A stretch of 64,000 nucleotides of DNA from Candidatus Woesearchaeota archaeon (GTDB lineage Archaea > Nanobdellota > Nanobdellia > Woesearchaeales > UBA9642): assembly GCA_003599145.1 (NCBI GenBank), contig QZIT01000005.1, positions 320,330 through 384,329 of the forward strand, written 5' to 3'. Positions 1 through 17,000 of this stretch are shown in pieces (position 1 is the first letter of the stretch; each line of letters opens with the position of its first letter). The notes under the pieces were generated by a model. That model was not told the origin of the DNA. It worked only from the letters and a program-made list of their open reading frames with translations, and searched no databases. The position numbers and the translations under genes were made by a program.

Positions 1-1479
1 GTTGCGGCAGCAACAGTCATAGGAGGTTTATCTGTTTTAGGATGGCAAAATGATATTATTCCTGAAATGAAAAAATCCATTTATCATGAAGTAAGAGAGC
101 AGATGGAAACAACAGACCCTCTTTATAAAAATGGTTCTGAAGTGAAAGCAAAGTTCAAAACAGGGAAGTATGATATAACGATGAAACTGAGAAACATCAA
201 AGATGAAAGAATGTTTGGCGTTTGGCGAGAAGCAAACCCCACAAAGCTTACTGTTTCCAGAGAGTATTATCGAAGCCTTTTTCCCATCGTTATGGGAGAA
301 ACATCCATCGTTAACGATGTTGCGAAAGAATTTGGTTTTGATGAGCGTTTATTATCCGCAGTAGCAAGAGCTAATGTTCAGTATGATGTCGACAGTGCCC
401 TGAGCAGAGATTTTTTCACTTTAGGGCTGACTAATTTACCTGTACGAATAATCCAGCTGTATGGCATAGAAGATGAAGAAAGCATCAGCAAATTCAGGGA
501 CAAACTTAACTATGACGACAAAGAAAACTTAAGATTTTGTGCAAAATACTTAAGGGATTTATTTTCACAATATGCTATTGATGGAGAAGAAGGCGCATTG
601 CTCGTCAATTATTACGGAGGACCTATGGTTTGGGCTGAGGCTCAGAGATTAGCGAGAGATAAGTTAAGCTCAAGGATGCCTCCAACAGACAATGTCGAAG
701 CGATGATGGAAAACAGGAATAAAGTTGACGAACAGGTATCTTTATACGAAAATTACAGAGAATTTTTGCCCTCTTCAGTCAGATTAGCCGTTGATGTCAC
801 TTTGGCGTTGGGAACGCCAGAACCTGAAAGATATGATTACCCTACAGGAGTTGAAAACTGGACTGACAGAGAAAAAGCGTATGTAGGAAATCCGTTTGAC
901 CTCAGCAGAGACATTATCAACACAAGATTTCATTATTCAGACTCAACAGCGTATGCAACAGATATAGATGTCTTAAGAGATGTCTTATGCAGGTATGATG
1001 CAGTGGGCTGGATAAAGGAAATCAGCGATGAGAAAAAGATTGATAGAAGAATACTGAAAGGCTTGATAGGATTAGGCTATAGAGAGTATCCAAACGATAA
1101 ACTAACGCCCTATTATAAAGAACACGGCTTTGTTGGGTTAGTTCCTCAAAAACCAGAAATTGCAGGAGTTTCAAAAGAAAGGCTTGCAGGAGACCATAGA
1201 TACAATTTAGAAGTTGCCGCAGACAGGTTTACTGAAATTTATCAGCAAGTGTTACCTCAATACCTTAAAGATCACACAGGCATACGAACAAGTCTTGACA
1301 GTCTTGATGCACAATATGAAGCAGCTGCTATTTTCATTACCAATGACCCTCTTGCAAAAGCAAAGGCAGAAGCAGTAGGAAAAAACAGATGGTGGATTTC
1401 TGATTTAGAAAAGCCCTTTAATGCAGCAGTTATGGCCTATAGCACAGGCAGAAGTATCGGAGAAGAAAGGCACCATTAA
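1..1479 (+). CDS. hypothetical protein, 5'-partial (reading frame is open to the window edge; N-terminal hydrophobic segment VAAATVIGGLSVLGW precedes the first ATG at 67)
   Basis: Frame 1 is open from nt 1 through 1479 with no stop before the annotated ATG at 67. The product is a long soluble domain with no motif I recognise. Confidence 0.45.
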   Translation, partial: VAAATVIGGLSVLGWQNDIIPEMKKSIYHEVREQMETTDPLYKNGSEVKAKFKTGKYDITMKLRNIKDERMFGVWREANPTKLTVSREYYRSLFPIVMGETSIVNDVAKEFGFDERLLSAVARANVQYDVDSALSRDFFTLGLTNLPVRIIQLYGIEDEESISKFRDKLNYDDKENLRFCAKYLRDLFSQYAIDGEEGALLVNYYGGPMVWAEAQRLARDKLSSRMPPTDNVEAMMENRNKVDEQVSLYENYREFLPSSVRLAVDVTLALGTPEPERYDYPTGVENWTDREKAYVGNPFDLSRDIINTRFHYSDSTAYATDIDVLRDVLCRYDAVGWIKEISDEKKIDRRILKGLIGLGYREYPNDKLTPYYKEHGFVGLVPQKPEIAGVSKERLAGDHRYNLEVAADRFTEIYQQVLPQYLKDHTGIRTSLDSLDAQYEAAAIFITNDPLAKAKAEAVGKNRWWISDLEKPFNAAVMAYSTGRSIGEERHH

Positions 1480-2384
1480 AACATAATTGTTAATTGGTTT
1501 CCCATTAATTTTAACGTTTGAAATGCAAGGTCATGGATGTAATCAATGACATACACTTGCTTAATATCTTTTTTTCTTTCACTTAGGGCATCTGCTTTTG
1601 CTCTTAAACTGTTAAATTTTTTTGCAAGGGCAACTGCCTTTTCTGGTTTTGCATCATAGAACAAGGCATAATAGTCGTTGAATAAGGAAAGTGTATCCTG
1701 CAATAAAGCTATGCTGTCGTTGTCAAAAACCACTTTTTTTGCCTTGACATAGCGCACAAACTCTTTTATCTTATCTCCCAAATCTTCCAATCCTATAATA
1801 ATAGTATACATGACTGCGGTCTTGTCAAATTCCTTGTATCCTTTTTTGTTTAAAGTTCTCAGACAGTAAAAGCAAAACTTGTTGATGTTGCTATCTATAT
1901 ATTCAACATGCTCAAGATTGGTTTCTTTTTTCTTTGCAGATGCAAGTGTTTCTTCAAGCATGGATTTTAAGAGTAAAAAAATTCTTCTCAATAAATTGTC
2001 AAATTCTTCTGCTGAAGACGTAGAAATCTCCTTTATCTTGCAGACGTTTTTAGATTGGTCAACAATTTCATAGCCAACTAAATCATTAATCACTTCTTTT
2101 TGTATGGTTCTGATTAAAGCAGGGTCGGTAAAATGAACGTCAACCTCATCATAGCCTTTCAGGTAAATGCCGACAATAGCTCTTTGATGCAGCGGTGTTA
2201 AGTGAGAAATATCTATTTTTGCTGTTTTGTTCTCCATGCCCTTTTCTGTATAGATCTCTAAAGCAGTTCCCCTCTCTTCAAGGTTAATTTCATCGCCTTT
2301 TTTCAGGTTAAACTGCTTTATCCATTTGCTAGGCAGGGAAACCATCATGGTTGCAGCGCCCTGCTGCACTAATTTACGCTTCAT
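1476..2384 (-). CDS. PhoU-like phosphate uptake regulator with N-terminal AbrB/SpoVT swapped-hairpin domain
   Basis: The N-terminus 'MVSLPSKWIKQFNLKKGDEINLEERG' has the AbrB/MazE-type beta-hairpin pattern. The remaining ~250 aa are helical and Leu/Lys-rich, as in archaeal PhoU homologs. It converges on the upstream gene with a 4-nt overlap. Confidence 0.5.
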   Translation of the reverse strand: MKRKLVQQGAATMMVSLPSKWIKQFNLKKGDEINLEERGTALEIYTEKGMENKTAKIDISHLTPLHQRAIVGIYLKGYDEVDVHFTDPALIRTIQKEVINDLVGYEIVDQSKNVCKIKEISTSSAEEFDNLLRRIFLLLKSMLEETLASAKKKETNLEHVEYIDSNINKFCFYCLRTLNKKGYKEFDKTAVMYTIIIGLEDLGDKIKEFVRYVKAKKVVFDNDSIALLQDTLSLFNDYYALFYDAKPEKAVALAKKFNSLRAKADALSERKKDIKQVYVIDYIHDLAFQTLKLMGNQLTIMF

Positions 2385-2526
2385 GCAAAAGGGAAAGTAA
2401 AGCGAATATATAAACTTTTCTATTTGATTATATACTTTATACTAATATATATACTTTAATAAAAATGTTTATATCCCCAATAGTGTTCACTACTATCAGA
2501 TGAGAAATCATCGGAGAGGACGAAAC

Positions 2527-3588
2527 ATGAATACCCTAAAACACATGAAACTAGGAATCATTTATGGATTAACGGCATTAACGTTGGCAACAACGGCAAA
2601 TGCAACAGGCATTTTTTCAGACATTAAATACAAAGTCAATGATGACCAAACTGCTGAAACAAGGCAAAGACTTAACTTAGATTTGCCTCTAGGCCTTGAA
2701 ATAAAGGCATTTGCAGACACTGACTATGACAGCGAAGGTAGCGTTACAGAAAAGACTGCAGGCGGATGGATTGCCAAAGGAACAAGATTAGATCATGATA
2801 GTTCCTTGACTATTGACAACAAAACCTACTTGAAAATAAAGCAGAACGTTGCAGATACAAAAAAGAACTCAGTAATTGTAGGAACTGATTTTAACTTTGC
2901 AACACCAACCTTTAACGCCTATGTGCTTCCTGTATGGAGCGAAATCGCAGACAATGAAGTGCAAAACAACTTCATGATGGGCATTGCAACGCAGAAAATA
3001 GGAACAGGTTCCTTGGAAAGCGGAGTCATCTATGAATGGAACAAACATAGTGATGACAATAAAGGTGCCTATGTCATTGCAAAGACAGAAAAGCTTGGTG
3101 TTAGCATGAGCGAGTATGTCTATGACCCTATTGTCAGTGTTGCTGCTGGATGGCAGAATGAAAACGTTGGATTTATGGGATGGACAGAACATAACTACGA
3201 CAATAAAGACTTTAAATTGACTGCATTTGCTGCACAGCATCCTGCAAGCGTTGTAGGAAAAGAAGGAATGAACACCTTAGCAAACGTGTTTTGCATCACC
3301 CAGCCACCTGAATTAGATCCTTACTTGACCAGCACAGGAAGAAAATCCCTTGATGGCCTTGCAGGAAAGCTTGTGATAGAAAAGGTTAGCGATGCATGGA
3401 ACATAACACCAGAAGTTGCCTATAACGCAGGAGACCTTGCTATCATGATGGGCTCAGTGCTGAAAGACGGCGAGTATGATGCCATGACTGCTGCAGTGAA
3501 CTACAGCAAAGGACCAGTGATGGTTGAAGTCAAAGGCGACACGCACAAGAACTTTACACTGTACACTAAAGTTACAGGAACTTTTTAA
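2527..3588 (+). CDS. secreted beta-rich protein, unknown function (signal peptide; C-terminal amphipathic strand ending in Phe)
   Basis: The ORF opens at 2500, but GGAGAGG sits 5 nt upstream of the ATG at 2527. The N-terminus 'MKLGIIYGLTALTLATTANATG' reads as a signal peptide. The body is Gly/Asp/Tyr/Thr-rich and ends '...FTLYTKVTGTF'. Confidence 0.5.
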   Translation: MNTLKHMKLGIIYGLTALTLATTANATGIFSDIKYKVNDDQTAETRQRLNLDLPLGLEIKAFADTDYDSEGSVTEKTAGGWIAKGTRLDHDSSLTIDNKTYLKIKQNVADTKKNSVIVGTDFNFATPTFNAYVLPVWSEIADNEVQNNFMMGIATQKIGTGSLESGVIYEWNKHSDDNKGAYVIAKTEKLGVSMSEYVYDPIVSVAAGWQNENVGFMGWTEHNYDNKDFKLTAFAAQHPASVVGKEGMNTLANVFCITQPPELDPYLTSTGRKSLDGLAGKLVIEKVSDAWNITPEVAYNAGDLAIMMGSVLKDGEYDAMTAAVNYSKGPVMVEVKGDTHKNFTLYTKVTGTF

Positions 3589-3610
3589 TTTTTTTATTTT
3601 TGGTGAGAAT

Positions 3611-4312
3611 ATGAAAGAAGAAAAAAAACCGATATTACTCGAAGGAGATTTAGGAAACGCTGTTGCTGAAGCATATCGAAGAAGAGTTCAGGAAGAGTTT
3701 CCCAACCATGCAGTATTGACAGGTTTAAAATGGGAAGGTGGAACTGTTCGGTATGCAAATACCTATTCCCTTGTTTTGCTAAATCAAGTTTTGCACGATT
3801 TCGGATACCAAGTAGCAACATTAAGAGATATTGAAGACGCCATGGACTCTCAAAACTCTCTTGTTCCTCAAATATTCACCTATCAAACAGGTATTGTTCT
3901 CACTCGAGAACCATCAAAATCCGCACGGTATCTTGTTCGAGAACTCGGATCTCGAATAGGCGTTTCCTATGGACAAAAATTAGAGCTTCCTCTTATGATT
4001 TCTCTCCAAGATTTGGAGCTTATTGATGATAAAAGAGCAATGTTTGGCTTAACCTTTTACCTCCCTTCATATGCAAAGGTCATACCTGCTCCTGAATTCA
4101 ATGAAAAGTATCATCTACATAAGTTTGGGGATGCAGATCGTAATGGACTGCCTGTTCTCGATTCTGATGGTAACCGAACATTACACCTTAAACCAGCGAA
4201 AAAAACAGGTTTGTATAAAGTAGAAGTTCCAAACAAAGATGCATTGTTTGCAAATGACGAACGATTGGAACATGCTCAAAGAAATTATTGTGTAGCTGTG
4301 GTGAAAAAATGA
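3611..4312 (+). CDS. unknown-family protein, paralog 1 of 3 tandem copies
   Basis: The ATG at 3611 follows GGTGAGA. The track start at 3524 lies inside the upstream gene. Motifs LLEGDLG, RYANTYSLVLLN, QTGIVL, GLPVLD..G.RTLH.KP, TGLYKV and FANDERLEHA are shared with the next two ORFs. The stop overlaps the next start (ATGA). Confidence 0.6.
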   Translation: MKEEKKPILLEGDLGNAVAEAYRRRVQEEFPNHAVLTGLKWEGGTVRYANTYSLVLLNQVLHDFGYQVATLRDIEDAMDSQNSLVPQIFTYQTGIVLTREPSKSARYLVRELGSRIGVSYGQKLELPLMISLQDLELIDDKRAMFGLTFYLPSYAKVIPAPEFNEKYHLHKFGDADRNGLPVLDSDGNRTLHLKPAKKTGLYKVEVPNKDALFANDERLEHAQRNYCVAVVKK

Positions 4313-5022
4313 AAAAAGAAAAAAAACCGATATTACTGGAAGGAGATTTAGGGAAAACTGCGTTTAACATTTATTATAGGAAAGCGCAGTATGAATATGG
4401 AGATAATCCCTTATTAAAAGGATTGCAGATTGATAATAGCTCAGGCATTGTCAGAAACGCCAATACGTATGCACTGGCATTACTGAATGAAGTTTTAAGT
4501 ACAACTGAACTTAGTAGTTATAGATTAGTTAGACAAGGGGAAGTTGAAGAGCTCATAAGAGGTTCAGAAATGCCTTTTGTCATGAATATTCAAACAGGGA
4601 TTTTAGTAACCAGCAATCAAAGATCTGAAAGCGAACATCATTTGAGGGGAGCTCTTGAAGAGGGAATAAGAGGTCATTTTTCTTACGTTCAACTACCTCC
4701 TGTAGTAATTCCTATGCCTGAAGTGTTTTTAGGCATCGATAAAGAATCACCAACTGGCATGACTTTGAAACATTCACCCGGAGAAGGCTTTGTCATTGCA
4801 CCACAATTGGATATGCACTATGATGGATATACGTTTAAAGAGTTTGACAGTCGAGGATTGCCTTTGCTAGATATGCACGGAAAAAGAATACTTCATACGT
4901 GCCCTAAGGCTTACACAGGACTCTACAAAGTGCATGTTGAAAACGCACATAGTTTGTATGCGAATGACCACAGATTAGAACATGCAGAAAGAGACAACGT
5001 TGTTCTCGTGGTGAAAAGATGA
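4309..5022 (+). CDS. unknown-family protein, paralog 2 of 3
   Basis: The start at 4309 overlaps the upstream stop by ATGA. Its first ~45 nt are nearly identical to nt 3611-3655 of paralog 1 (atgaaa[g/a]aagaaaaaaaaccgatattact[c/g]gaaggagatttagg). The protein carries the same conserved motifs. Confidence 0.6.
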   Translation: MKKEKKPILLEGDLGKTAFNIYYRKAQYEYGDNPLLKGLQIDNSSGIVRNANTYALALLNEVLSTTELSSYRLVRQGEVEELIRGSEMPFVMNIQTGILVTSNQRSESEHHLRGALEEGIRGHFSYVQLPPVVIPMPEVFLGIDKESPTGMTLKHSPGEGFVIAPQLDMHYDGYTFKEFDSRGLPLLDMHGKRILHTCPKAYTGLYKVHVENAHSLYANDHRLEHAERDNVVLVVKR

Positions 5023-5732
5023 TAATCAACGCTAACTTATTGGAAGGAGAGCTAGGACAAAAAGTTTTTGAAGAGTATCAAAGAACAGTTCAAAATGAAT
5101 TTCCAAATAGAGTAGTATTGGAAAGTCTAGCTTATGAACAAGGCATTGTCAGAAACGCAAACACGTACTCACTTATCTTGCTGAATAGAGTTCTCGAAAA
5201 CTTCGGATATCAACTGGCAAACTTAAGGGATGTAGAAGACGTCGGTAGTAACATAAGTCTTCCATCAATGTTCAGATACCAAACAGGCCTCGTTATAAAT
5301 CCATCAAAGGCAAAGCAATATTTGACAAAAGATCTTATATCTCAAATCCGCGTTCCCGATGGACGAAAATTACAAGGGCCTATAATGATTTCATTAAGAG
5401 ATTTAGAGCTCAAACTGGATGGCAAAGCGAGTTTTGCTTTGGCATTTGCTCTCAGCCCCTTTGCAAGTACCTTTGCAAGCATCATACCTGCTCCTGAACT
5501 CGATGAAAAATATGACGGATATACGTTCTGGAAAACAGACAGCAATGGATTGCCTGTTCTCAACATGATGGGAAGAAGAACATTGCATACCAAACCAATT
5601 GGAGAAAGCACAGGTTTGTATAAAGTAGAAAGCCAAATATCCGAAGCAGACAATAAAGCACAATTATTTGCAAATGAAAGCAGATTAGAATATGCATGGA
5701 ATAATCCTGCTGTTGCGGTGATACGAAAATGA
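5019..5732 (+). CDS. unknown-family protein, paralog 3 of 3
   Basis: Joined to both neighbours by ATGA overlaps. Conserved motifs are LLEGELG, RNANTYSLILLN, YQTGLV, GLPVLNMMGRRTLHTKP, TGLYKV and FANESRLEYA. Confidence 0.6.
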   Translation: MIINANLLEGELGQKVFEEYQRTVQNEFPNRVVLESLAYEQGIVRNANTYSLILLNRVLENFGYQLANLRDVEDVGSNISLPSMFRYQTGLVINPSKAKQYLTKDLISQIRVPDGRKLQGPIMISLRDLELKLDGKASFALAFALSPFASTFASIIPAPELDEKYDGYTFWKTDSNGLPVLNMMGRRTLHTKPIGESTGLYKVESQISEADNKAQLFANESRLEYAWNNPAVAVIRK

Positions 5733-6355
5733 CGCTTTATAAGAAAAAGACGCTTTACGATAACGTACTATTCTTAGAAAAACTAGAGAGACGCATAGAT
5801 GAATCTCTGCATTTTTTAGCTACAAACGGATATGCTATAGAGCGCAATCCTATTGATATAAAAGAAGCATCAGATAAGTTTTTAGCAGCCACTTTGCATT
5901 TTGGTGAGAACAGCGTTGTCTCTCGATTGCGCTCTGGAGAAAGGCTGGATAACATTGTCGATGAGTATATTGGTGAAAGAAAGTACTGGCATTTATTATT
6001 TCACAAAAAAGAAAGGCAAGCGTATAATGCAAAGGTTGATGAGCTTTCAGCCATTATTGATGCTGAAGACCTGAAAGTCACGACGCTTTCTCCTATTGTT
6101 ATGGGAGTTGTAGGGCTTGTTACCTATGGCTTGGGCGCGCTAGTGGGTACCAGTTTAATTGCTGAATATGCATCAAAATATGAACAAGGAAATGCTCAAC
6201 CTATAGACACTTTAGAGACAGGATTAAGCTTGGCAATACTCGTTGGCGTTTTGTACTATGCGACGAAAACCATACTCAAGGACCTATCAAGCAACAAACC
6301 TATACGAGAAAAATTACAACCGCAAATAGATAAAGTGCAGGAATATCTACCATAA
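5729..6355 (+). CDS. small membrane protein (two predicted TM helices), co-transcribed with the paralog triplet
   Basis: The start overlaps the upstream stop (ATGA). The hydrophobic stretches LSPIVMGVVGLVTYGLGALVGTSLIAEYA and LSLAILVGVLYYATKTIL look like TM helices. Confidence 0.5.
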   Translation: MTLYKKKTLYDNVLFLEKLERRIDESLHFLATNGYAIERNPIDIKEASDKFLAATLHFGENSVVSRLRSGERLDNIVDEYIGERKYWHLLFHKKERQAYNAKVDELSAIIDAEDLKVTTLSPIVMGVVGLVTYGLGALVGTSLIAEYASKYEQGNAQPIDTLETGLSLAILVGVLYYATKTILKDLSSNKPIREKLQPQIDKVQEYLP

Positions 6356-6396
6356 ATTTTGCATAATTTTATAAAGCATTTTATGTTACGTTCTTC

Positions 6397-8709
6397 ATGC
6401 ACGGTTTCATTGTTTATCCAACCTATAGAATTATCGATAACAAAGCGTTTGTGTATCTATTTGGACGGTTGGAAAACGGTGAGAGCTTTCTTACCATTAA
6501 TGAATGCAAGCCGTATTTCTACATAAAAAAACTAGATTTGGAAAAAGCAAAAACGTTGGCGAAATTTGAAACAGAAGAAAATCATTTTAAGAATTTTGAA
6601 GGAGAAGAAGTAATCAAAATTATCCTGACAGTTACGTCTGACGTTCCCATAACAAGAGATTTGCTTCAAAGCAAAGACATACCGACCTATGAAGCAGACA
6701 TCAGGTTTATTTACAGGTTCATGATAGATAATGACATCAAGGGAAGCATGAAAATAACAGGAGACTACAAAAAAGGAGACTTTGTCGACAGAATCTATGA
6801 AAATCCAAAACTATCCGAAAGTGATTTTTTTCCTGAATTGAAAATGCTTGCCATCGATATTGAAACCGATGCAAAGCAAAAGGAAATTTACTGCATTTCT
6901 CTGTATACAAAAACGCATCAGGAAGTATTGATCCACAGCAATAAAAAATTGAACAACGCAACATCCTTTGCAACAGAAAAAGAATTATTAGAAACCTTCA
7001 TCAAAAAAATAAAAGAACTTGACCCTGATGTCATCACCGGATGGAACGTCATTCAGTTCGACATAAGAGTTTTAGAGGAAAAATGCAAAAAATACAATAT
7101 TCCCTTTGTTCTCGGCAGAACAAGAGAGACTGCAACGTTAAAAATTTTCAATGATTTTTTGAGAGAGTCAAAAGCAGATATTCCCGGAAGAATGGTCTTG
7201 GATGGCATTCACTTAATTAAGACATCATTCATGCAGTTAAAAGACTACACACTAGATAATGCGGCGTCAGAAATTCTCGGAGAGAAAAAATTAATAGGAA
7301 AAAAAGACAAGGGAAAAGAAATTGAAGATGCCTTTAGAAACAACCAGCAAAAACTGGTTGATTACAATTTAAAAGATTCAGAATTAGTCTATAATATCCT
7401 TGAAAAAACAGGAGTTGTCAAACTAACCATACAACGTTCCTTATTAACAGGACTGCAGTTAGATAAAGTCAATGCAAGCGTTGCAAGTCTAGATAATTTG
7501 TATCTGAGAGAAACGAGAAAAAGAAAAATTGTCTGCAACAACAGCCAGTTTTCTGAAAAAGAAAAACCCATCACAGGCGGTTTTGTCAGGGACAGCATGC
7601 CTGGCTTATATGAGCATATTGTCGTGCTTGATTTTAAAAGCCTGTATCCCAGCGTCATGAGAACATTCAATATTGACCCGTACAGTTTTGTTCATGAAAA
7701 ACCAAAACAGGTTGACAAAAAAAAGTTTGTTGTTGCTCCCAATGGCGCCGTATTCAAAAATGAAGAGGGCATTTTGCCGTCGTTAATTCAAGAACTATGG
7801 GCGCAAAGAGAAAAAGCAAGAAAGCAGAAAAATGAGCTTGCGCGATACGCCATAAAAATTCTGATGAACAGTTTTTTTGGAGTTCTTGCAAATCCATCGT
7901 GCAGGTTTTTCAGCATGGAAATCTCCAATGCAATAACCCATTGCTCACAGATGGTGATTAAATTAACTGCAGAAAAAATAAAAGAAAAAGGATATGTCGT
8001 TATTTATGGAGATACTGATTCTGTTTTTATAGATACAGAAGCAAAGAACGACAAAGAAGCAGAAAACATTGGAAAAGAATTGCAAGACTATATCAATAAT
8101 TTTTATCAGGACTATATCAAGAAAGAATACCATAGAGAAAGCTATTTAGAACTGCAATTGGATAAAGTATTTTTACATTTTCTCATGCCCAGAATACGGG
8201 GAAGTGAAGTCGGAGCAAAAAAAAGATACGCAGGATTGATTATGGAAAACGAAAAAGAAAAGCTTGTTTTTACAGGGCTAGAATCAAAACGCTCTGACTG
8301 GACAGCATTGAGCAAAAAATTTCAGGAAGAACTGTTATTAAAAATTTTCAAGAAAGAAAAATACGACGCATATATACGAACATTTATTGACGACTTGAAA
8401 AAAGGAAAATACGATGATTTGCTTATCTATAGAAAAAAAATAAACAAGCCATTGTCTGCCTATGTCAAAACAACTCCTCCGCATGTCAAGGCAGCAAGAA
8501 AATTAAAGGAAATACATTCTAACGTCATCATGTATATGATGACCACCGACGGACCTGAACCCATACAACAAATAAAGCATCAGATTGATTATGAGCATTA
8601 CCTGGACAAGCAGATAAAGCCAATAGCAGATGCCATTTTAACCTTTATCGATAAAAGCTTTGAAGATGTCATGAAGAACAGCAAGCAAACAAGCTTAAGC
8701 GGGTTTTAA
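6397..8709 (+). CDS. polB: DNA polymerase, family B (archaeal PolB), no inteins
   Basis: The N-terminus resembles archaeal PolB. Exonuclease motif regions are present (DIET..., YNLKDSELVY). Polymerase motifs A (DFKSLYPSVM), KKRYAGL and C (YGDTDSVF) are present. At 770 aa the protein is uninterrupted. Confidence 0.9.
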   Translation: MHGFIVYPTYRIIDNKAFVYLFGRLENGESFLTINECKPYFYIKKLDLEKAKTLAKFETEENHFKNFEGEEVIKIILTVTSDVPITRDLLQSKDIPTYEADIRFIYRFMIDNDIKGSMKITGDYKKGDFVDRIYENPKLSESDFFPELKMLAIDIETDAKQKEIYCISLYTKTHQEVLIHSNKKLNNATSFATEKELLETFIKKIKELDPDVITGWNVIQFDIRVLEEKCKKYNIPFVLGRTRETATLKIFNDFLRESKADIPGRMVLDGIHLIKTSFMQLKDYTLDNAASEILGEKKLIGKKDKGKEIEDAFRNNQQKLVDYNLKDSELVYNILEKTGVVKLTIQRSLLTGLQLDKVNASVASLDNLYLRETRKRKIVCNNSQFSEKEKPITGGFVRDSMPGLYEHIVVLDFKSLYPSVMRTFNIDPYSFVHEKPKQVDKKKFVVAPNGAVFKNEEGILPSLIQELWAQREKARKQKNELARYAIKILMNSFFGVLANPSCRFFSMEISNAITHCSQMVIKLTAEKIKEKGYVVIYGDTDSVFIDTEAKNDKEAENIGKELQDYINNFYQDYIKKEYHRESYLELQLDKVFLHFLMPRIRGSEVGAKKRYAGLIMENEKEKLVFTGLESKRSDWTALSKKFQEELLLKIFKKEKYDAYIRTFIDDLKKGKYDDLLIYRKKINKPLSAYVKTTPPHVKAARKLKEIHSNVIMYMMTTDGPEPIQQIKHQIDYEHYLDKQIKPIADAILTFIDKSFEDVMKNSKQTSLSGF

Positions 8710-11700
8710 GTTGCCTATATACTCGTGCACGGCATCAATCGCCTCAACAAGAGAAGGTTTTCTCGCTGCAGATTTCTGTAAAAACTGATAAAGATCCCGC
8801 AAGGTGCAGGTATTATCTTTTAAACTTAGAGGAGTGATGAATTTCTGTTGCAAGGCGCTCGTAAAAAAAACCATGTCAATGCCAAAAACATTTTGCACCA
8901 TTCTCTGGTCAACAACCGTATCTCCAACATCTCCCTGCAAAGCAGCAGCATATCCGTTGCCATCCTGTGCTTTTTTAATTATTTTTCCTGTGCCAGGCTT
9001 AGTGTCTGTTGCGGGAATGGCAAAGCTTTCATCAGGCACTTTAGAATAATCAGGAATTATTACTTTTTTTTCATGAGCAGGAAGAACCGTTGGATGCGCG
9101 AGTTTATATGCATTAACTGCAGTAGTGCAAGCCGTCGCCAACTGCTTCAGCGCTTTGTCTTTCATACCCGAAGCGTTGCCTGAAAATAAATAATCCAATG
9201 CAGCCTTGAGTGTAGTAGTTCCATCGTTTTCTACATACAAGCGTCCTGTTGCTTTTGCGCTTTGAATAACAGGCAAGGGAAGGTTGCTTAATGTGCTAAG
9301 CTCTTTCATCGATAAAACAGTATCCAAAGTATACGTCGGCTGTACCACGGGCGTTGGAGATTCTGGTGCAGATAAAACGGGTGTTGCAGCAAGTTGCTCC
9401 AACGTCTGTAATCTTTCACCTAGAACGCTTAGAATTTTTGGATTTGCATCAGAAACCTGTTGAGCATAAGCAAACAATGCAGGAGAATCTTTGCACAGGG
9501 AAGTTAAAAAATCCAGTTTTGTAGAAGTAGAAAAACCGTGAACAAGATAGCTAAGAAAATCGGAAAGGAGAACGCCGTCTTTATGGCGCGGCAATGCCTT
9601 TGCGATTAAAAGATTATCAATATATCTTCCTCGGTGACTGGCGATGTCTGCAAGGTCAGCAACGCGCATAACTGTTTCAGGAGTATAGAGAGAAGGTTTA
9701 ACAGCAACATCTGTTTTTTCTGTATCTAAAGCACGCGATGTATCTATTTCAATAGGGTCTTGTTCTTTCAAGAAATCATCAACTGACTGTACATTTCTCC
9801 GCAAAGTTGCCAATGCAGTCTCTTTTTTTTGTGTTTGCCTGCCTGAAGTTAAATAACCAAGGTAATCCTGTAAAGTAACGCTTTTATTACTTTCTTGGGA
9901 TTTTAAACGTCCACCTGCAACTGCCTGAGATAAAGCAGAATAGTTTGCTCCAGAAAGCCGAGAAATCTCAGCCAAGGATAAGGATGAATCTAACGTATAA
10001 ACTGGAGGGTTAGGGGGCGTTGCAGGGATATCTGCTGGAGGAACATCAGCAGGAGGTGTATCTATGGGAGTTGCAGGAACATCTGATGGAACAGCTAACG
10101 TGTTTTCATCTGAAACAACCGATGCACTTTTTGAAATAACATATGCCTCTGCACCTGCAACATTCTTTCTTATAACGGCTAGTGCTCTTTTTTTTGCTTG
10201 AAATTGAGGGCCTGTAAGGAGAGAATCAATATAATCGCTCATAAGCACTGCACTTCCTTGCGTTTTAAGAGTGCCCTGATTTATACGATGACTAACGGCA
10301 CTATCCGTAACCTGCACTAACTCAGCAAGCTCATGAACAGAAAGCAAAGAATCTAAGGTGTATTCTGTTTCAGCAAAACTAGAGGAGTGTGGCGTTTCAA
10401 CAGATGACTCTTCTGTCTCTACTGCAACTGTTTTTGTAACATATTCTTGAAATTGCGGAGCATTCTTGCAAATGGCATCAAGAAGTTGTTTTTTTAAAGA
10501 AGTTGCCCTTCCTCCTTTCAAATAATCCAAAACTTCTCTTACTGCTAAAGCACTGCCATCGCGAAAAGGCAAATCAGCGACGTGAGGTAAATTCTTAAAG
10601 TATTGCGCCTTGTATCCAGAAAGTTCTGCTAATTCAGTAGAAATAAGAACAGAGTCGAGCGTGTACGCTTTTGCTTTTGTTAACACATCAGTTCCTAATG
10701 GCGGTAAAGGAACTGTTTCTCCATCTGCTAAAAACGGAGTTATCAAATCAGGAACTATTCCTTTTAACGCAGCAATGGCATTTCTCTTTGACTCGCTTGT
10801 TCTTCCTGAAGTAAGATAGATTAAACCATCTTCAAGGGTTAGCAACATATCTCCCTCTTTTTTCTCCGTATTAAGGTTTCCCTTTCGAGCTGACTTGTAT
10901 AACGCATCAGAGCTTATTCCCGTTAAACTCGCAAATGCATCAATAGTAAATGCTGATTTCAACGTGTAGACTGGCTTATCTATCTGTTCTGCTGTCGTTT
11001 CTACAGTCGCTCCTTTGTCGAGAGCAGTTCCTGCAAGATGCGTTGCAACACAGGGAACATTGTTCATCAAATTATGCAAAGCATCTGCTTTAGACTTGGT
11101 GTTCATTCCTGAAGTTAAATAACCAATATAATCAGAAAGCTTTACCTCAGTATTCACATTTTTGCCTGTTCCTTCAAGACGATGAGTTGTTACTGCGGCT
11201 AGTATAGTTTCCCACGATACGTCTGCAAGTTTTGCAAGCGTTCTGACGTCAAGTACTGTATCCATCGCATATTTTGAAGGGTCTGGCAAAAGATACTCAT
11301 CTATATTTTGTGTTTTTCTAAACGTCTCAACGAGCTCAGGCATTTCTTTATGCAAGCATTCAAGGAAATCACTTTTATGCTGCGTTATTCTTCCTGTTGT
11401 CAAATAGGTTAAAAACTCAAAAAGCATGATTCCTTGGTTATGAAGAGTTAGCCTTCTCGCATGAATGACATTGTCAAAATACTTTGGCTCAACGCCGAGA
11501 AGGTCTGCTAAAGCAGTAACTTTCATATACTGTCTTAAATCATTTGGAATATCTGAATGAACAGTCGATAAAGAATGTTTCTCTCCTCTAAAAACGGCAT
11601 CAAGAACAACAGAGATTCCTTTTTCTTTCAATGCATCATCAAAAGGTTTTCCGTCTAAAAGTGAAACAGCATGAATCTTCTCAAACATGCCATCGGTATT

Positions 11701-12246
11701 TAAAAGCAAATAGGCTTCTGGAATGTCTGCAAATACAATCGCTTTTCTGTTTTTTCCAATAATTTTTTTGATAATGCCTTCAACGCCTTGTCTTAGCGTC
11801 GTATATTCTATTAAAAAGTCATCATTTTGATCCCAAACATTTCTCAGTGATTCATAAAAATATGCCTGTGCATGAACCTGCTGTTCTGAGAAAAATAACG
11901 AAGTAGTATTTTTCACTGCCGCAGTTGAGAGTCTAACCACGTCTTTTTCAGTGCTGAATGTTAAAATTCCAGAAACATCCTCCTCAGTACTTGCCGTAAA
12001 CCCATAATAATGGGGAACAACTATCTGCATAGGCTGTACTTTTTTTCGTTTATCTTCTTTTTTATCTCCTGATGCAACGATGCCCTGTGGCTGTAAAAAT
12101 CCTTGAAAGCTTCTTGCAAGTTCCTCTGCAAAGCTTAAATGCCTCTGCTCTTCAAAGGCTCTAAAAACATCTTGCTTTACTGTTGCTATGATTGCCTGCA
12201 AATTCATCGTTGCCGAGAACCAATGATTGTATTTAAACGTTTCCAT
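8695..12246 (-). CDS. giant cytoplasmic protein with ~9 tandem HTH-like repeat modules (novel architecture)
   Basis: There is no signal peptide. Repeats of ~75-90 aa open with '(V/Y)YTLDS.LS..ELA.LSG' and end with 'L.DYL.YLTSG'. The opening looks like an excisionase/MerR-type HTH. Example copies begin at protein positions ~405, 480, 560, 640, 730, 815 and 890. A Pro-rich linker 'PSDVPATPIDTPPADVPPADIPATPPNPP' interrupts the array. The 3' end overlaps polB by 15 nt (convergent). Confidence 0.6.
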   Translation of the reverse strand: METFKYNHWFSATMNLQAIIATVKQDVFRAFEEQRHLSFAEELARSFQGFLQPQGIVASGDKKEDKRKKVQPMQIVVPHYYGFTASTEEDVSGILTFSTEKDVVRLSTAAVKNTTSLFFSEQQVHAQAYFYESLRNVWDQNDDFLIEYTTLRQGVEGIIKKIIGKNRKAIVFADIPEAYLLLNTDGMFEKIHAVSLLDGKPFDDALKEKGISVVLDAVFRGEKHSLSTVHSDIPNDLRQYMKVTALADLLGVEPKYFDNVIHARRLTLHNQGIMLFEFLTYLTTGRITQHKSDFLECLHKEMPELVETFRKTQNIDEYLLPDPSKYAMDTVLDVRTLAKLADVSWETILAAVTTHRLEGTGKNVNTEVKLSDYIGYLTSGMNTKSKADALHNLMNNVPCVATHLAGTALDKGATVETTAEQIDKPVYTLKSAFTIDAFASLTGISSDALYKSARKGNLNTEKKEGDMLLTLEDGLIYLTSGRTSESKRNAIAALKGIVPDLITPFLADGETVPLPPLGTDVLTKAKAYTLDSVLISTELAELSGYKAQYFKNLPHVADLPFRDGSALAVREVLDYLKGGRATSLKKQLLDAICKNAPQFQEYVTKTVAVETEESSVETPHSSSFAETEYTLDSLLSVHELAELVQVTDSAVSHRINQGTLKTQGSAVLMSDYIDSLLTGPQFQAKKRALAVIRKNVAGAEAYVISKSASVVSDENTLAVPSDVPATPIDTPPADVPPADIPATPPNPPVYTLDSSLSLAEISRLSGANYSALSQAVAGGRLKSQESNKSVTLQDYLGYLTSGRQTQKKETALATLRRNVQSVDDFLKEQDPIEIDTSRALDTEKTDVAVKPSLYTPETVMRVADLADIASHRGRYIDNLLIAKALPRHKDGVLLSDFLSYLVHGFSTSTKLDFLTSLCKDSPALFAYAQQVSDANPKILSVLGERLQTLEQLAATPVLSAPESPTPVVQPTYTLDTVLSMKELSTLSNLPLPVIQSAKATGRLYVENDGTTTLKAALDYLFSGNASGMKDKALKQLATACTTAVNAYKLAHPTVLPAHEKKVIIPDYSKVPDESFAIPATDTKPGTGKIIKKAQDGNGYAAALQGDVGDTVVDQRMVQNVFGIDMVFFTSALQQKFITPLSLKDNTCTLRDLYQFLQKSAARKPSLVEAIDAVHEYIGNLKPA

Positions 12247-14050: not shown

Positions 14051-17000
14051 ATGGGTAGAGTGAAGAGGCATCATTTTTTACGAATAGGTCTAGTTGCTGT
14101 ATTTTTCATCATTCTCGGCTCTATGATTATCCATCTTGCAGACCAGCCAAGAGTAGGAAGGCCTATAGGATATGCTCCGACTTCCTTCAATTATTTCTTT
14201 CCGCTTACAGAAGGAACTGGCTTAACAATAACGGACACCACAACATCGCTGACAGGCTATTTGGAAACAAGCATCGAGCGAGACAGAACTCCTGATTGGA
14301 CCAAGATAAATCCAACAGAGTATGCATTGAATTTTTCTTATGACTCCAGCGGATTAGGAAGCGTCAGCAGATGGGTAAGAATTCCCTATCAATCAAATCT
14401 GGAGCCTCAAACATTCACGATAGAAGCGTGGGTGAGGCCAGAAGTCAACAACGGACAAGCACAGTACATCATTGTCAAGGATGGTACAAGCGCAACAGAC
14501 CAGAACACGGGTTATCGTTTATGGTATCAGCATCCAAATTACTGTTTTCAGGTAAAAAAAAGCTCAGCATGGTCTGCTGTCCAATGCAACTCAGGCTCAG
14601 GGCTAAATAACTGGGACCATGTTGCTGCAAGCTATCAGCAGTCATCAGGAACATTGGCAGTGTATGTTAACGGAAACAGCCTTTCATCAGTTACAGGCGC
14701 AGGAGCAATACAGTACAGCCAAGGAGATTTATTTATTGGCTCGCCAGGAAGAGAAACAAATCCTCAGTATAATTTTCAAGGCTTAATAGCCGATGTAGTC
14801 ATCACCAATTCAGTCAGCACATCATCAAATCCTTTTAACTTAAAGCCTAATATCGTAACAACAGGAAACTCTCCTTCAGGATTAACGCCTGATGCTATCT
14901 TTACCTGTGCATTTGATTCGAACATTCCTGGTTCTATCGAACTGCATACGGACAGAACAGGCAGCATGCAAAAAGAAAAAAGTTTCGATTATACTCAAGT
15001 TGATTATGCAAGTCTTCCTAATAACGGACAAGTGAGCTTTACGCTTACTAATCTTAATCAGGGAACGTATCAGTGGAACTGCATAGCCTATGATTTAAAT
15101 GGAAACTCCTATCAAGGCACACAAAAATCAGTTTCCATGCAGCTTGCAAGAGATTTAATAACCACTCCTAAAAATCCTGATGATAAAGAGATTTTTGAAA
15201 CAACGTTAAGTTCATTGCCAACAGCATTTCAATGCGAAGTAACTTCAACGCAGATAAAACAAGTTGAATTATGGCATAGCAATGGTGGTTGGAGCAGGAA
15301 AGGTCTGAACACCACGTTTCCTCCTGGAGTGATGTACAATATTGTTCCTACAATCAGTCAAAGCACCTATGCAAATTATCTATTGTCAGGATTTGAAGCA
15401 AATAAAGCAGCTGATGGAAATGATGCAACACTATGGGATTCAGGCACAAGAACCATATCCAATAATGGAATGATATGGGAGATAAATTTAACACAGCCCT
15501 ATACGATAAATAGATCGGTAATAAAGTGGTCTGGTCACAGCAGCTTTTCAGCAGGAAGTTGCGGTTCTAATACTGCTCAATTTATGTTCTTGAATGGTGT
15601 AAACACAAGATCTCAATTTGATGTAAATTACGCTGTAGGTGATATTATAACAGACGTTGCTGTAAATAAGCAAGGGATTAACCACATAGTAATTTTTCAG
15701 GGTACGGGGACGAGTTGCCAATTTAGAGGAACCATAAAAGAAGTTGAACTTTATTCCCAAGACTTCACTACAGGTGGAGAGGTAAACAATTGGTTAATTA
15801 ATTTTTCTTACAGCCAGCCTGAAGGAACACACACCTGGACCTGTAATGGTCTTACTATCAGCGATGCCAGACCTGTAATTACTGAAAACAGAACCGTTAT
15901 TGTTTCAAGAATACCCAGTGTCACGTTAGGAAATGTGTATGCAGGCGCTACGCTGATTAGTGGACCTTCGTATCAGACCTATCAGAGAAACCTGCGCTTC
16001 GAGTGCAGTGCAACAGGAAGCAATTTCTTAAGAAACATGACCTTGTATACAGATACAGGAGGAACATTCACGGCAAGAGAAAAGAAAACCTATAGTGGCG
16101 GCACTGCGTCTTTCACTCTTAGTGATTTAAATCCGGGAAGCTATCAATGGAATTGCTTGGCAGAAAATGCCTTTGGCACAACTGCATTTTCATCTGCAGA
16201 CAAAACAATAACTATTCTTCAGCCAACGATTGTTGCAAGATTTGACAATCCTGTTGATGGATTTACCACCACAGATAATAATGTAACATTGCAATGCAAC
16301 GGAACAGGCCATGCACAAAGCCCATTAGTAAACATGACGTTTTATGTGAAAAACACAACAGGCAATTGGACAGCAAATAAATTTCCTTATACGTCAGGAA
16401 GATTTTTATACAATCTCACAGGATTACAAACAGGAAGCTATGAATGGTATTGTGAAGTGCAAAACAGTTTTGGAGATAGTAATAGAACAGCAACCAATAG
16501 AACGTTTAACATTCAAACGCAACCGCAATACACTATTTGCCAAAATAATGCATGTGTTACCGTAAACGGCATCGGAACAAATCAGTGCAGTGCAGATGCA
16601 AATTGCCAGAGTTTATTCGGAGTTAACCTTATAAGCCCAACAGACGGATACACCAGCTACCTTGCCAATGCCAATTTTCAAATGAACTGCTCAGCAACAG
16701 GCAATACTAATGATTCTTTAAGTCTGTACACTAACCTGACAGGAACATGGCAAGAAACACAAACAAAACAATACACATCTGGAATTGCAACATTCAATCT
16801 AACATCTGTACCAGTTGGAGTTTATGTATGGAATTGCAGAGTAAATGACACGAACGGAAACTACAAATTCAATGAAACTAACAAAACATTCGCTGTACAA
16901 ACTCCCATGCATTTAGAATGCAGAAATAACGCGTGTGTTTCCGTCAACGGAGAAGGAACAAATCAATGCAACACAGATGCAAACTGTCAAAATATTATGG

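Follow-up and report, generated by a model that had tools for sequence, protein, structure and literature searches.

A tandem trio of predicted C-type-lectin-fold proteins from a Woesearchaeota genome, probably frozen members of a DGR variable-protein family

In a 64-kb stretch of a 576-kb contig from Candidatus Woesearchaeota archaeon, hereafter called the window, three tandem paralogous genes are followed by a gene for a small membrane protein (ORF4). We consider it likely that the paralogs are anciently triplicated, frozen C-type-lectin-fold (CLec) proteins of a diversity-generating retroelement (DGR) variable family, with hard-wired ligand binding and coupled to ORF4. In the relatives, an adjacent reverse transcriptase (RT) rewrites the variable repeat (VR) from a downstream template repeat (TR) by adenine-specific mutagenesis, which would create a hypervariable ligand-binding surface. 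In the Woesearchaeota genome this scaffold would have been tandemly triplicated long ago, and the VR segment would have been frozen as the conserved LFAN-D/E-x-RLE-H/Y-A, with the retroelement absent from the window. The absence of the retroelement and the conservation of the frozen segment make hard-wired ligand binding the most likely function: three related but distinct CLec proteins would bind ligands, and would be made together with ORF4 from one mRNA by translational coupling.

Tandem genes and translational coupling

All genes of the cluster lie on the plus strand. Paralog 1 (3611..4312, 233 aa) is a diverged member of the DGR variable-protein family with a single, predicted CLec-fold domain; paralog 2 (4309..5022, 237 aa) is the most diverged of the trio, and paralog 3 (5019..5732) again comprises 237 aa. 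NCBI lists them as hypothetical proteins of Candidatus Woesearchaeota archaeon (C4573_03630/35/40, 233/237/237 aa). A sequence-only reading of this DNA had described the three reading frames as mutually similar over their full length, and pairwise alignments bear this out, with 39–56% identity, 70 invariant columns in the three-paralog alignment and tblastn E values from 4e-36 to 8e-69. All motifs listed in that reading (LLEG(D/E)LG, TGLYKV, LFAN(D/E).RLE(H/Y)A etc.) were recovered in the alignment. Paralog 3 shares 53–56% of its residues with paralog 1 (65% at the DNA level over 607 nt), and paralog 2 shares 39–40% with paralog 1 over the full length; the topology of the neighbor-joining (NJ) tree is ((p1,p3),p2). 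The trio is monophyletic; dS among the paralogs amounts to 1.0–1.6 and dN/dS to ~0.37. The trio is an old (dS above 1), lineage-specific expansion under purifying selection. A fourth copy was not found in the 64-kb window by tblastn. Each paralog contains at most one Cys, and hydropathy revealed no N-terminal hydrophobic segment in any of the three, in line with the earlier statement that signal peptides are lacking. This absence is compatible with either intracellular binding or non-classical export.

Every junction, that to ORF4 included, is an ATGA stop-start overlap (4309, 5019 and 5729), as had been noticed before. A Shine-Dalgarno-like GGTGA motif can be read upstream of paralog 1 (3602..3606, plus strand), and its equivalents at 4300-4304, 5010-5014 and 5717-5721 of the same strand are embedded in the final codons (V-V/I-K/R) of the gene ahead; the motif sits 8–12 nt upstream of each of the four starts. 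Overlaps and embedded Shine-Dalgarno motifs both speak for the translational coupling postulated earlier, from which a fixed stoichiometry of the products would follow. The paralogs and ORF4 would share a single transcription unit. Its first gene may be the one at 2500..3588 (plus strand), which stops 22 nt (T-rich) before paralog 1 and encodes a beta-rich protein of 362 aa with a signal-peptide-like N-terminus; family libraries and the PDB yielded no match for this protein.

A 5' tract at 3601..3657 (plus strand), extending from –10 to +47 of paralog 1 and beginning ~10 nt upstream of the ATG, is 91–94% identical to a tract at 4299..4355 (plus strand) of paralog 2, whose initial nucleotides double as coding sequence for VVKK at the C-terminus of paralog 1. 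For the first 45 nt an identity of about 90% had been stated; we counted 42 matches, and 44 in the first 47 nt (93.6%). Codons for the same residue are identical in 12 of 14 cases (P ~0.002 under independent codon choice). Because this DNA identity exceeds what protein conservation requires, the tract is best read as a probable short gene-conversion tract that takes in the ribosome-binding site as well as codons 1 to 15, which fits the conversion event that had been suggested for the 5' ends.

Family, fold and DGR linkage of relatives

The family had initially been called unrecognised. It is absent from Pfam, yet as judged from profile comparisons the trio belongs to a widespread archaeal family, the archaeal origin of the metagenomic relatives being deduced from archaeal neighbour genes only. 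Among 1.84 billion proteins, the three-paralog profile retrieved 348 representatives at E<=1e-3, of which 179 remained at E<=1e-10. Alignment of the paralog profile with that of 14 canonical members by hhalign covered 217 columns (probability 99.9%, E 6.8e-35). In loci L001-L005, tblastn located matches to paralog 1 with 30–31% identity (E 3e-20 to 3e-24). The canonical framework motifs FLEGDFG, GSNPF..VL.N, ALVLR, P.MIPL..LEL, GLP and GLS.L have counterparts in the same columns of the paralogs, namely LLEGDLG, RNANTYSL.LLN, TGIVLT, P.MISL.DLEL, GLPVL and TGLYKV. No match was obtained when the paralogs were scanned against Pfam, NCBIfam, PHROGs and PADLOC, when 87 relatives were scanned against Pfam, or when the PDB sequences were searched with three different profiles. 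A word-indexed search of 5.8 billion proteins returned only the paralogs themselves, and with the 87 family sequences as queries just 6 proteins scored. Neither a pattern scan of genome contigs, which did not recover the source genome either, nor the viral contigs provided a relative.

A confident structure model is similar to CLec-fold structures, with non-enzymatic binding domains as best matches, and on this modelling basis the paralogs are predicted to adopt a C-type-lectin fold. AlphaFold run on the three-paralog alignment alone performed poorly (pLDDT 53.7), and Foldseek found no significant match in the PDB and BFVD. In the predicted secondary structure, residues 8-11 form a strand, 12-29 and 51-62 are helical, and the last strand occupies 229-232.

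Canonical members of the family are DGR variable proteins. We found 11 metagenomic loci with a ~82-nt VR in the homolog, and each of them has a downstream template copy of these C-terminal ~82 nt, ~400 nt downstream of the family gene(s). A local RT profile detected an RVT_1-type RT in 10 of the 11, and at each of the five loci examined with Pfam the ORF adjoining the TR was RVT_1 (E down to 1e-21). In 15 TR/VR pairs, 190 mismatches fall on a template A and only ~10 on other bases. The VR of the relatives encodes ~27 residues directly before the last beta-strand, and in canonical members its 3' end (IMH region) encodes G-R-V-V-V-V; a G[RK]-hydrophobic motif is present in 148 of 192 family members. 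Canonical VRs contain 1% Lys, 2% Glu and 0.4% Gln, and codons at template-AAY columns of DGR-linked VRs never end in A. Most family members are single-copy. Tightly spaced tandem pairs were seen at six loci, and in the four that reach far enough downstream both VRs match one template; tandem VRs with a common template are 84–91% identical in DNA. About 15 members with 1.5–8 kb of flank have no RT/TR in cis, and many of these keep a D/S/G/Y-rich VR. An 89-nt downstream copy in L001-L004 was rejected as a TR, since its mismatches show no adenine specificity and an RT is missing from the vicinity.

ORF4 and the cellular location of the trio

ORF4 (5729..6355, plus strand, 208 aa) consists of a soluble N-domain of ~118 aa, two TM helices and a basic C-tail. 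Hydropathy placed the two helices, already recognised in the sequence-only reading, at residues ~119-145 and ~165-183, joined by a loop of only ~19 residues. The large domain would share its side of the membrane with the basic C-tail, predicted to be the cytoplasmic one. ORF4 is an orphan protein: among 5.8 billion proteins a word-indexed search found only ORF4 itself, Pfam, NCBIfam, PHROGs, PADLOC and the PDB gave no match, and no homolog adjoins family members in 60 other loci. By analogy with their relatives, the paralogs would bind ligands and may form a complex with ORF4, whose N-domain probably anchors them to the membrane on its cytoplasmic side; ORF4 being an orphan, comparison with other loci does not back this tether. 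The idea that the family regularly comes as a triplet with a TM partner did not hold, as most members are single-copy, tandem copies at the six loci are pairs, and ORF4 has no homolog. More generally, none of the neighbours in the 60 other loci is common to the window. In two loci, a small TM protein unrelated to ORF4 is encoded upstream of the family gene.

A related, though rather unlikely, reading would see the trio as a "domesticated" hypervariable receptor, in which somatic diversification was replaced by three fixed germline paralogs. These would be partly homogenised by short gene-conversion tracts and would build a recognition complex of fixed stoichiometry on ORF4 as a lineage-specific membrane protein. 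Such domestication would place the complex in an intracellular or membrane-proximal position in a DPANN archaeon.

The location is quite different if the paralogs are surface or secreted adhesins for host contact, as proposed for DPANN DGR variable proteins, that leave the cell by non-classical export with ORF4 and/or the secreted 362-aa protein encoded upstream as anchor or export partner. The position of the cluster between the gene for a signal-peptide-bearing protein and a membrane-protein gene would suit this explanation, but none of the three paralogs has an N-terminal hydrophobic segment, the short loop leaves ORF4 with little between its helices, and for its large domain a cytoplasmic position is predicted, beside the basic C-tail; we regard an adhesin role as improbable.

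The former variable segment and related systems

Alignment with the VRs of 15 DGR-linked genes identified a VR-equivalent before the last beta-strand of paralog 1, at 4205..4294 of the plus strand (TGLYKVEVPNKDALFANDERLEHAQRNYCV). Those of paralogs 2 and 3 were located by alignment with the DGR-linked VRs at 4915..5004 and 5610..5714 (both plus strand), the latter with an insertion of 5 residues. No part of the protein is better conserved between paralogs 1 and 2 than the VR-equivalent, where amino acid identity reaches 68% versus 20–30% in mid-protein; DNA identity among the three VR-equivalents is 53–69%. The GRVVVV-coding VR 3' end is absent from the paralogs, which have NYCVAVV, DNVVLVV and NPAVAVI instead. 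At template-AAY columns, 6–9 of 15 paralog codons are purine-ending (AAA, GAA, CGA, CAA, AGA), the count at template-adenine columns being nine of 15 in paralog 1. Lys, Glu and Gln occur repeatedly in the segment, and K/E/Q/R are carried at AAY columns, whereas an AAY template would be expected to yield NNY codons for residues such as N, D, S, G, Y and C. Judged by its codons and residues, the VR-equivalent does not fit adenine mutagenesis. None of the paralogs' 3' segments recurs in the window, which also holds no RT ORF (local RT profile; tblastn best E 0.039). An active DGR within the window was rejected, as neither TR nor RT is present. In the 64 kb of the 576-kb contig that were searched, the trio is apparently DGR-free and its VR-equivalent segment fixed.

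The conserved Arg/Asn/His/Glu positions had been taken for an active site or a ligand site. Since the conserved C-terminal motifs TGLYKV and LFAN(D/E)xRLE(H/Y)A fall on the segment that is hypervariable and ligand-binding in the homologs, homology argues for a putative ligand site, whereas nothing was found that would speak for catalysis. The trio could be viewed as enzymes of the FGE-like CLec branch that use the conserved Asn/Arg/Glu/His as active site. We consider this very unlikely: these polar residues lie where homologs randomise freely, which is incompatible with a family-wide catalytic site, the top structural matches are non-enzymatic binding domains, and at the sequence level the paralogs matched no family of enzymes, showing neither a Pfam FGE-sulfatase domain nor its catalytic residues.

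We give hardly any credence to the trio still being active DGR targets that are diversified in trans by a retroelement elsewhere on the contig; several and remote targets are known for DGRs (PMC5758913), the window represents only 11% of the contig and other family members are likewise devoid of a cis RT/TR, but the VR-equivalents show the highest conservation within the proteins, differ from one another at many synonymous and non-adenine-derived positions, are less alike in DNA than tandem pairs served by one template, miss the GRVVVV-coding end, and contain A/G-ending codons as well as Lys/Glu/Gln that are impossible from AAY templating.

Among the closest known systems is AvpA (PDB 5IOO; Handa et al. 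2016, PMC5006420), a DGR variable protein from Nanoarchaeota. A precedent for the frozen trio comes from Woesearchaeota genomes, in which AvpA-like proteins lacking a DGR have been reported (PMC5006420). The likeness of AvpA to the paralogs is at the level of the fold only, and a sequence relation is undetectable: profiles built from 87 or from 14 members of the family miss 5ioo at E<=10, and the AvpA motifs GxxVVVYAH, HPxxxPFxG and RFxGV are missing in the paralogs' family, which has ALVLR, GLP and GRVVVV instead. On these grounds we rejected membership in the AvpA sequence family. Also, unlike AvpA, the window proteins stop straight after the last strand, are tail-less and are without VR/TR. 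TaqVP, TvpA and Mtd (PDB 5VF4 and others; PMC6328139) are bacterial and phage DGR variable proteins with an FGE-type CLec fold and 9% identity; their VR comprises 40–45 residues at the very C-terminus, whereas the window proteins are undiversified. Animal C-type lectin-like domains (SP-A 1r13, tetranectin 1htn, CLEC5A 2yhf) show 4–11% identity to the window proteins, which in contrast are of a cytoplasmic, archaeal type with large inserts and without the disulfide framework.

In DGR variable proteins, sequence conservation cannot reveal the ligand contacts because the binding sites are randomised. A frozen trio with a conserved polar motif in the formerly variable loop and a dedicated membrane partner would offer a stable handle on what this scaffold binds. 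The analysis moreover provides several hundred "hypothetical proteins" without a Pfam model with a fold and a genomic role; many of these, at no fewer than 15 loci with usable flanks, are without a cis retroelement. For annotation, the trio is otherwise an ordinary case, in which a binding-protein gene has expanded in tandem within one lineage. Multi-target tandem cassettes make up ~13–15% of DGRs (Wu et al. 2018, PMC5758913); the window likewise contains tandem duplicates with hardly any space between them, but differs from these cassettes in its three copies, its ATGA junctions and its terminal membrane-protein gene, all without a template or RT.

The gene row and its transcription unit

The three paralogous genes lie in tandem on the plus strand (paralog 1, 3611-4312, 233 aa; paralog 2, 4309-5022, 237 aa; paralog 3, 5019-5732, 237 aa) and are followed on the same strand by ORF4 (5729-6355). 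The sequence-only reading had described this row correctly on every point, whereas its interpretation was supported only in part. As it had stated, the paralogs align over their full length, rather than being similar merely within the N-terminal 15 residues, with 40% and 56% identity of the other two to paralog 1, 70 invariant columns and tblastn E values between paralogs of 4e-36 to 8e-69. A fourth copy was not found by tblastn in the 64-kb window, whose GC content is about 0.38 throughout. NCBI lists the paralogs and ORF4 as 'hypothetical proteins' C4573_03630 to 03645 of Candidatus Woesearchaeota archaeon (576,430-bp contig).

The ATGA overlaps claimed earlier are present at all three junctions of the four-gene row, including that of paralog 3 with ORF4. 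A GGTGA motif is located 8-12 nt 5' of the start codon in 4/4 genes, and for genes 2-4 it coincides with the codons of a conserved C-terminal V-V/I-K/R-K in the preceding protein. This is how translational coupling should look in an archaeon whose internal cistrons are led by Shine-Dalgarno motifs. The 5' ends of paralogs 1 and 2, previously estimated as about 90% identical, share 44/47 nt from ~10 nt 5' of the ATG, the remaining DNA being unalignable except near the 3' end. Since 12/14 identical-residue positions in this tract use the same codon (P ~0.002 under independent codon choice), the effect is real, whether it stems from gene conversion over a short tract or from selection on the nucleotides of the initiation region.

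The divergent neighbour of the trio is an AbrB/MazE-like regulator (1476-2384, minus strand). The 362-aa product of 2500-3588 (plus strand), a beta-rich protein whose N-terminus resembles a signal peptide, has no match in Pfam, NCBIfam or PDB; ATG 2527, preceded by GGAGAGG, may be an alternative and perhaps better start. Because this gene stops only 22 T-rich nt ahead of paralog 1, the trio's unit may begin with it. The family B DNA polymerase gene 3' of ORF4 (6397-8709, plus strand) probably has its own promoter, as the TATA-box-like TTTATAAA (6360-6400) stands ~27 nt 5' of its ATG, which suggests a separate, nearly leaderless transcript. We infer that the trio's transcription unit most likely extends from 2500 (or 2527) to 6355. 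Also in the window are a 1183-aa protein (8695-12246, minus strand) with about nine repeats of a ~95-aa module (YTLDSxLSxxELAxLSG ... LxDYxxYLxSGR ... KxxAL), matching the PADLOC model 'mad1' (E 1.4e-10) and, in Pfam, only NNH6 below threshold, and a giant, probably surface-located protein of 1908 aa (14051-19777, plus strand) that combines Laminin_G_3 (concanavalin-like) with NedA-like galactose-binding domains.

Relatives as targets of diversity-generating retroelements

The trio was held to be an unrecognised family, and it indeed matches nothing in Pfam, NCBIfam, PHROGs, PADLOC or the PDB sequences; a word-indexed search of 5.8 billion proteins retrieved nothing but the trio itself. When a profile of the three sequences was run exhaustively against 1.84 billion cluster representatives with HMMER, however, 348 proteins passed E<=1e-3 and 179 passed E<=1e-10, with only two besides the window's own attaining 1e-30. 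The relatives are therefore many and distant (25-30% identical, mostly 230-300 aa), none of them close. A Pfam domain was found in 0/87 relatives, whose consensus shares with the trio the framework FLEGDFG...GSNPFAVVL.N.IL...GLRTA...YED.ALVLR...PN.YLA...P.MIPL..LEL..D..S..GL.F.L...A..I.AP.L...N..F...D..GLP....G.R.LYT...GLS.L.L...L.L.S....L..S...GRVVVV. Profile-profile comparison of the trio with 14 canonical members (proteins linked to diversity-generating retroelements, DGRs, in this unnamed archaeal family) gave 99.9% probability (E 6.8e-35, 217 columns). AlphaFold performed poorly from the three paralogs alone (pLDDT 53.7); the 87-sequence alignment gave pLDDT 93.7 and pTM 0.91, and Foldseek of the model against PDB and BFVD returned nothing significant. 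The family is now placed by its fold and by how its relatives behave in their genomes.

The C-terminal segment of the relatives is rich in D, S, G, N and Y. Among 54 metagenomic loci (groundwater, sediment) retrieved with a five-sequence alignment, 11 repeat ~82 nt from the C-terminal part of the gene ~400 nt 3' of the last family gene; in two-gene loci, one such copy matches both genes. The copy reads AAC or AAT where the genes have GGC, TAC, GAC, AGC etc., and over 15 pairs 190 mismatches fall on adenines of the copy and ~10 on other bases. Translated in frame, it gives Asn-rich strings such as LNNDLDLNTRNDNLANSNENGRIA. The adjoining ORF is an RVT_1 reverse transcriptase (RT) in all five loci scanned (Pfam, E down to 1e-21), and a local RT profile detected an RT in 10 loci. 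In these loci the family protein is therefore the target of a DGR. Its variable repeat (VR) encodes ~27 residues immediately ahead of the last strand, followed in many members by a helical tail. Neighbouring genes are archaeal (Rpb7, Spt4, S24e), with nearby N-terminal sequences that we take to be FtsZ, Spt5 and aRF1; no relative was found on viral contigs. As both cis template and RT are absent from ~15 loci whose flanks extend over 1.5-8 kb, DGR-unlinked members are common.

Triplets with a membrane partner, raised as a possible family habit, are not one: in a local profile search most loci carry one family gene and six (L008, L010, L012, L013, L016 and L035) a tightly spaced tandem pair, and no neighbour of the cluster recurs beside other members in the metagenomic loci compared. 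The paired genes are 2-16 nt apart. The upstream one (~240 aa) is missing the segment LPxFxGKPLIEIP...FLEGDFG at its N-terminus. In L008, L010, L013 and L016 it has its own VR matching the shared template; the sequences of loci L012 and L035 stop too early to show this. The RT of L016 (9128-10153, minus strand) is convergent with template and VRs on the opposite strand, an unusual cassette orientation. That of L010 is split into two overlapping ORFs (2191-2838 and 2820-3293), via frameshift or assembly error, and in both VRs of this locus the differences from the template remain A-specific.

Four loci (L001-L004) contain an intergenic 89-nt copy 1.1 kb 3' of the gene; in L001, 8140-8228 repeats the gene's 3' end at 7019-7107, stop codon included, with 93% identity. 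It was rejected as a template repeat, since its mismatches are not adenine-specific and no RT lies within 4 kb. Possible origins are a template repeat that has decayed and a second paralog that was deleted except for this remnant. In L001 (4305-7098) and L006 (3-2083), the family gene is preceded by a radical SAM gene of the B12-binding type and by a gene for a small membrane protein (107-109 aa, homologous between the two loci at 39% identity), a second, unrelated instance of a membrane protein in this position. In L001 (5784-5951), and likewise in L002, the radical SAM gene has an 84-nt tandem duplication (93% identical) at its 3' end.

The apparently retroelement-free trio

In the 64-kb window no RT ORF was found (no match to the local RT profile, best tblastn E 0.039), and none of the paralogs' 3' segments recurs on either strand. 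The VR-equivalent segments, assigned by alignment with DGR-linked VRs (4205-4294, 4915-5004 and 5610-5714, plus strand, in paralogs 1 to 3), lack the GRVVVV-coding end present in 148/192 members. Mutating both adenines of an AAY codon cannot yield a purine-ending codon, and in DGR-linked repeats the codons at AAY-templated columns end with C, T or G, never A; the trio has purine-ending codons (AAA, GAA, CGA, CAA, AGA) at 6-9 of 15 such columns. Several K, E or Q residues occur there in the paralogs, compared with 1%, 2% and 0.4%, respectively, in canonical repeats. Paralogs 1 and 2 are 68% identical here and 20-30% in mid-protein, making this segment the best conserved part, just where hypervariability would lead one to expect the reverse. 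With dS at 1.0-1.6, synonymous sites are saturated; dN/dS is ~0.37, and the trio is monophyletic, ((p1,p3),p2), on a long branch within the family; the duplications are thus old, lineage-specific and under purifying selection.

By homology, the TGLYKV...LFAN(D/E)xRLE(H/Y)A stretch would form the ligand-binding surface of a C-type-lectin scaffold, and the trio keeps fixed Asn, Asp/Glu, Arg, Glu and His/Tyr at positions randomised in relatives. On these grounds, we interpret the paralogs as hard-wired binding proteins whose specificities are related, made in a coupled fashion together with ORF4. The latter is an orphan without a homolog among 5.8 billion proteins; a ~118-aa soluble domain is followed by hydrophobic helices at ~119-145 and 165-183, in keeping with the two TM helices proposed earlier, and a basic tail. 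This tail, together with the acidic loop between the helices, points to a topology with both termini inside (N-in/C-in), which would place the 118-aa domain in the cytoplasm as a possible docking place for the signal-less lectin-fold proteins. Exported adhesins for host contact are an improbable reading of the paralogs, none of which has a hydrophobic N-terminus, as the earlier claim of missing signal peptides implied. Still less probable are FGE-like enzymes. That a DGR acting in trans still diversifies the trio is very improbable: 89% of the contig lies outside the window and could hold one, but the VR-equivalents are only 53-69% identical in DNA and a single template could not serve all three.

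Relation to described systems

Among described proteins, those closest to the trio are AvpA, a Nanoarchaeota DGR variable protein (PDB 5IOO), and 'AvpA-like proteins' from archaea in groundwater. Homologs in Woesearchaeota with 'no DGR' were already listed by Handa et al. (PMC5006420), and tandem multi-target DGRs account for 13-15% of DGRs (PMC5758913); the trio is thus not a new kind of system, but a new, diverged and apparently retroelement-free protein of a known kind. Membership of the AvpA sequence family is ruled out, as the family profiles do not retrieve 5ioo and all three AvpA motifs are missing. DGR-linked relatives share the layout described for AvpA (PMC5006420), in which the VR precedes the final strand and, in many members, a helical tail comes after it. 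The family may represent one of the unclassified VR classes in the CPR/DPANN set of Wu et al. (PMC5758913).
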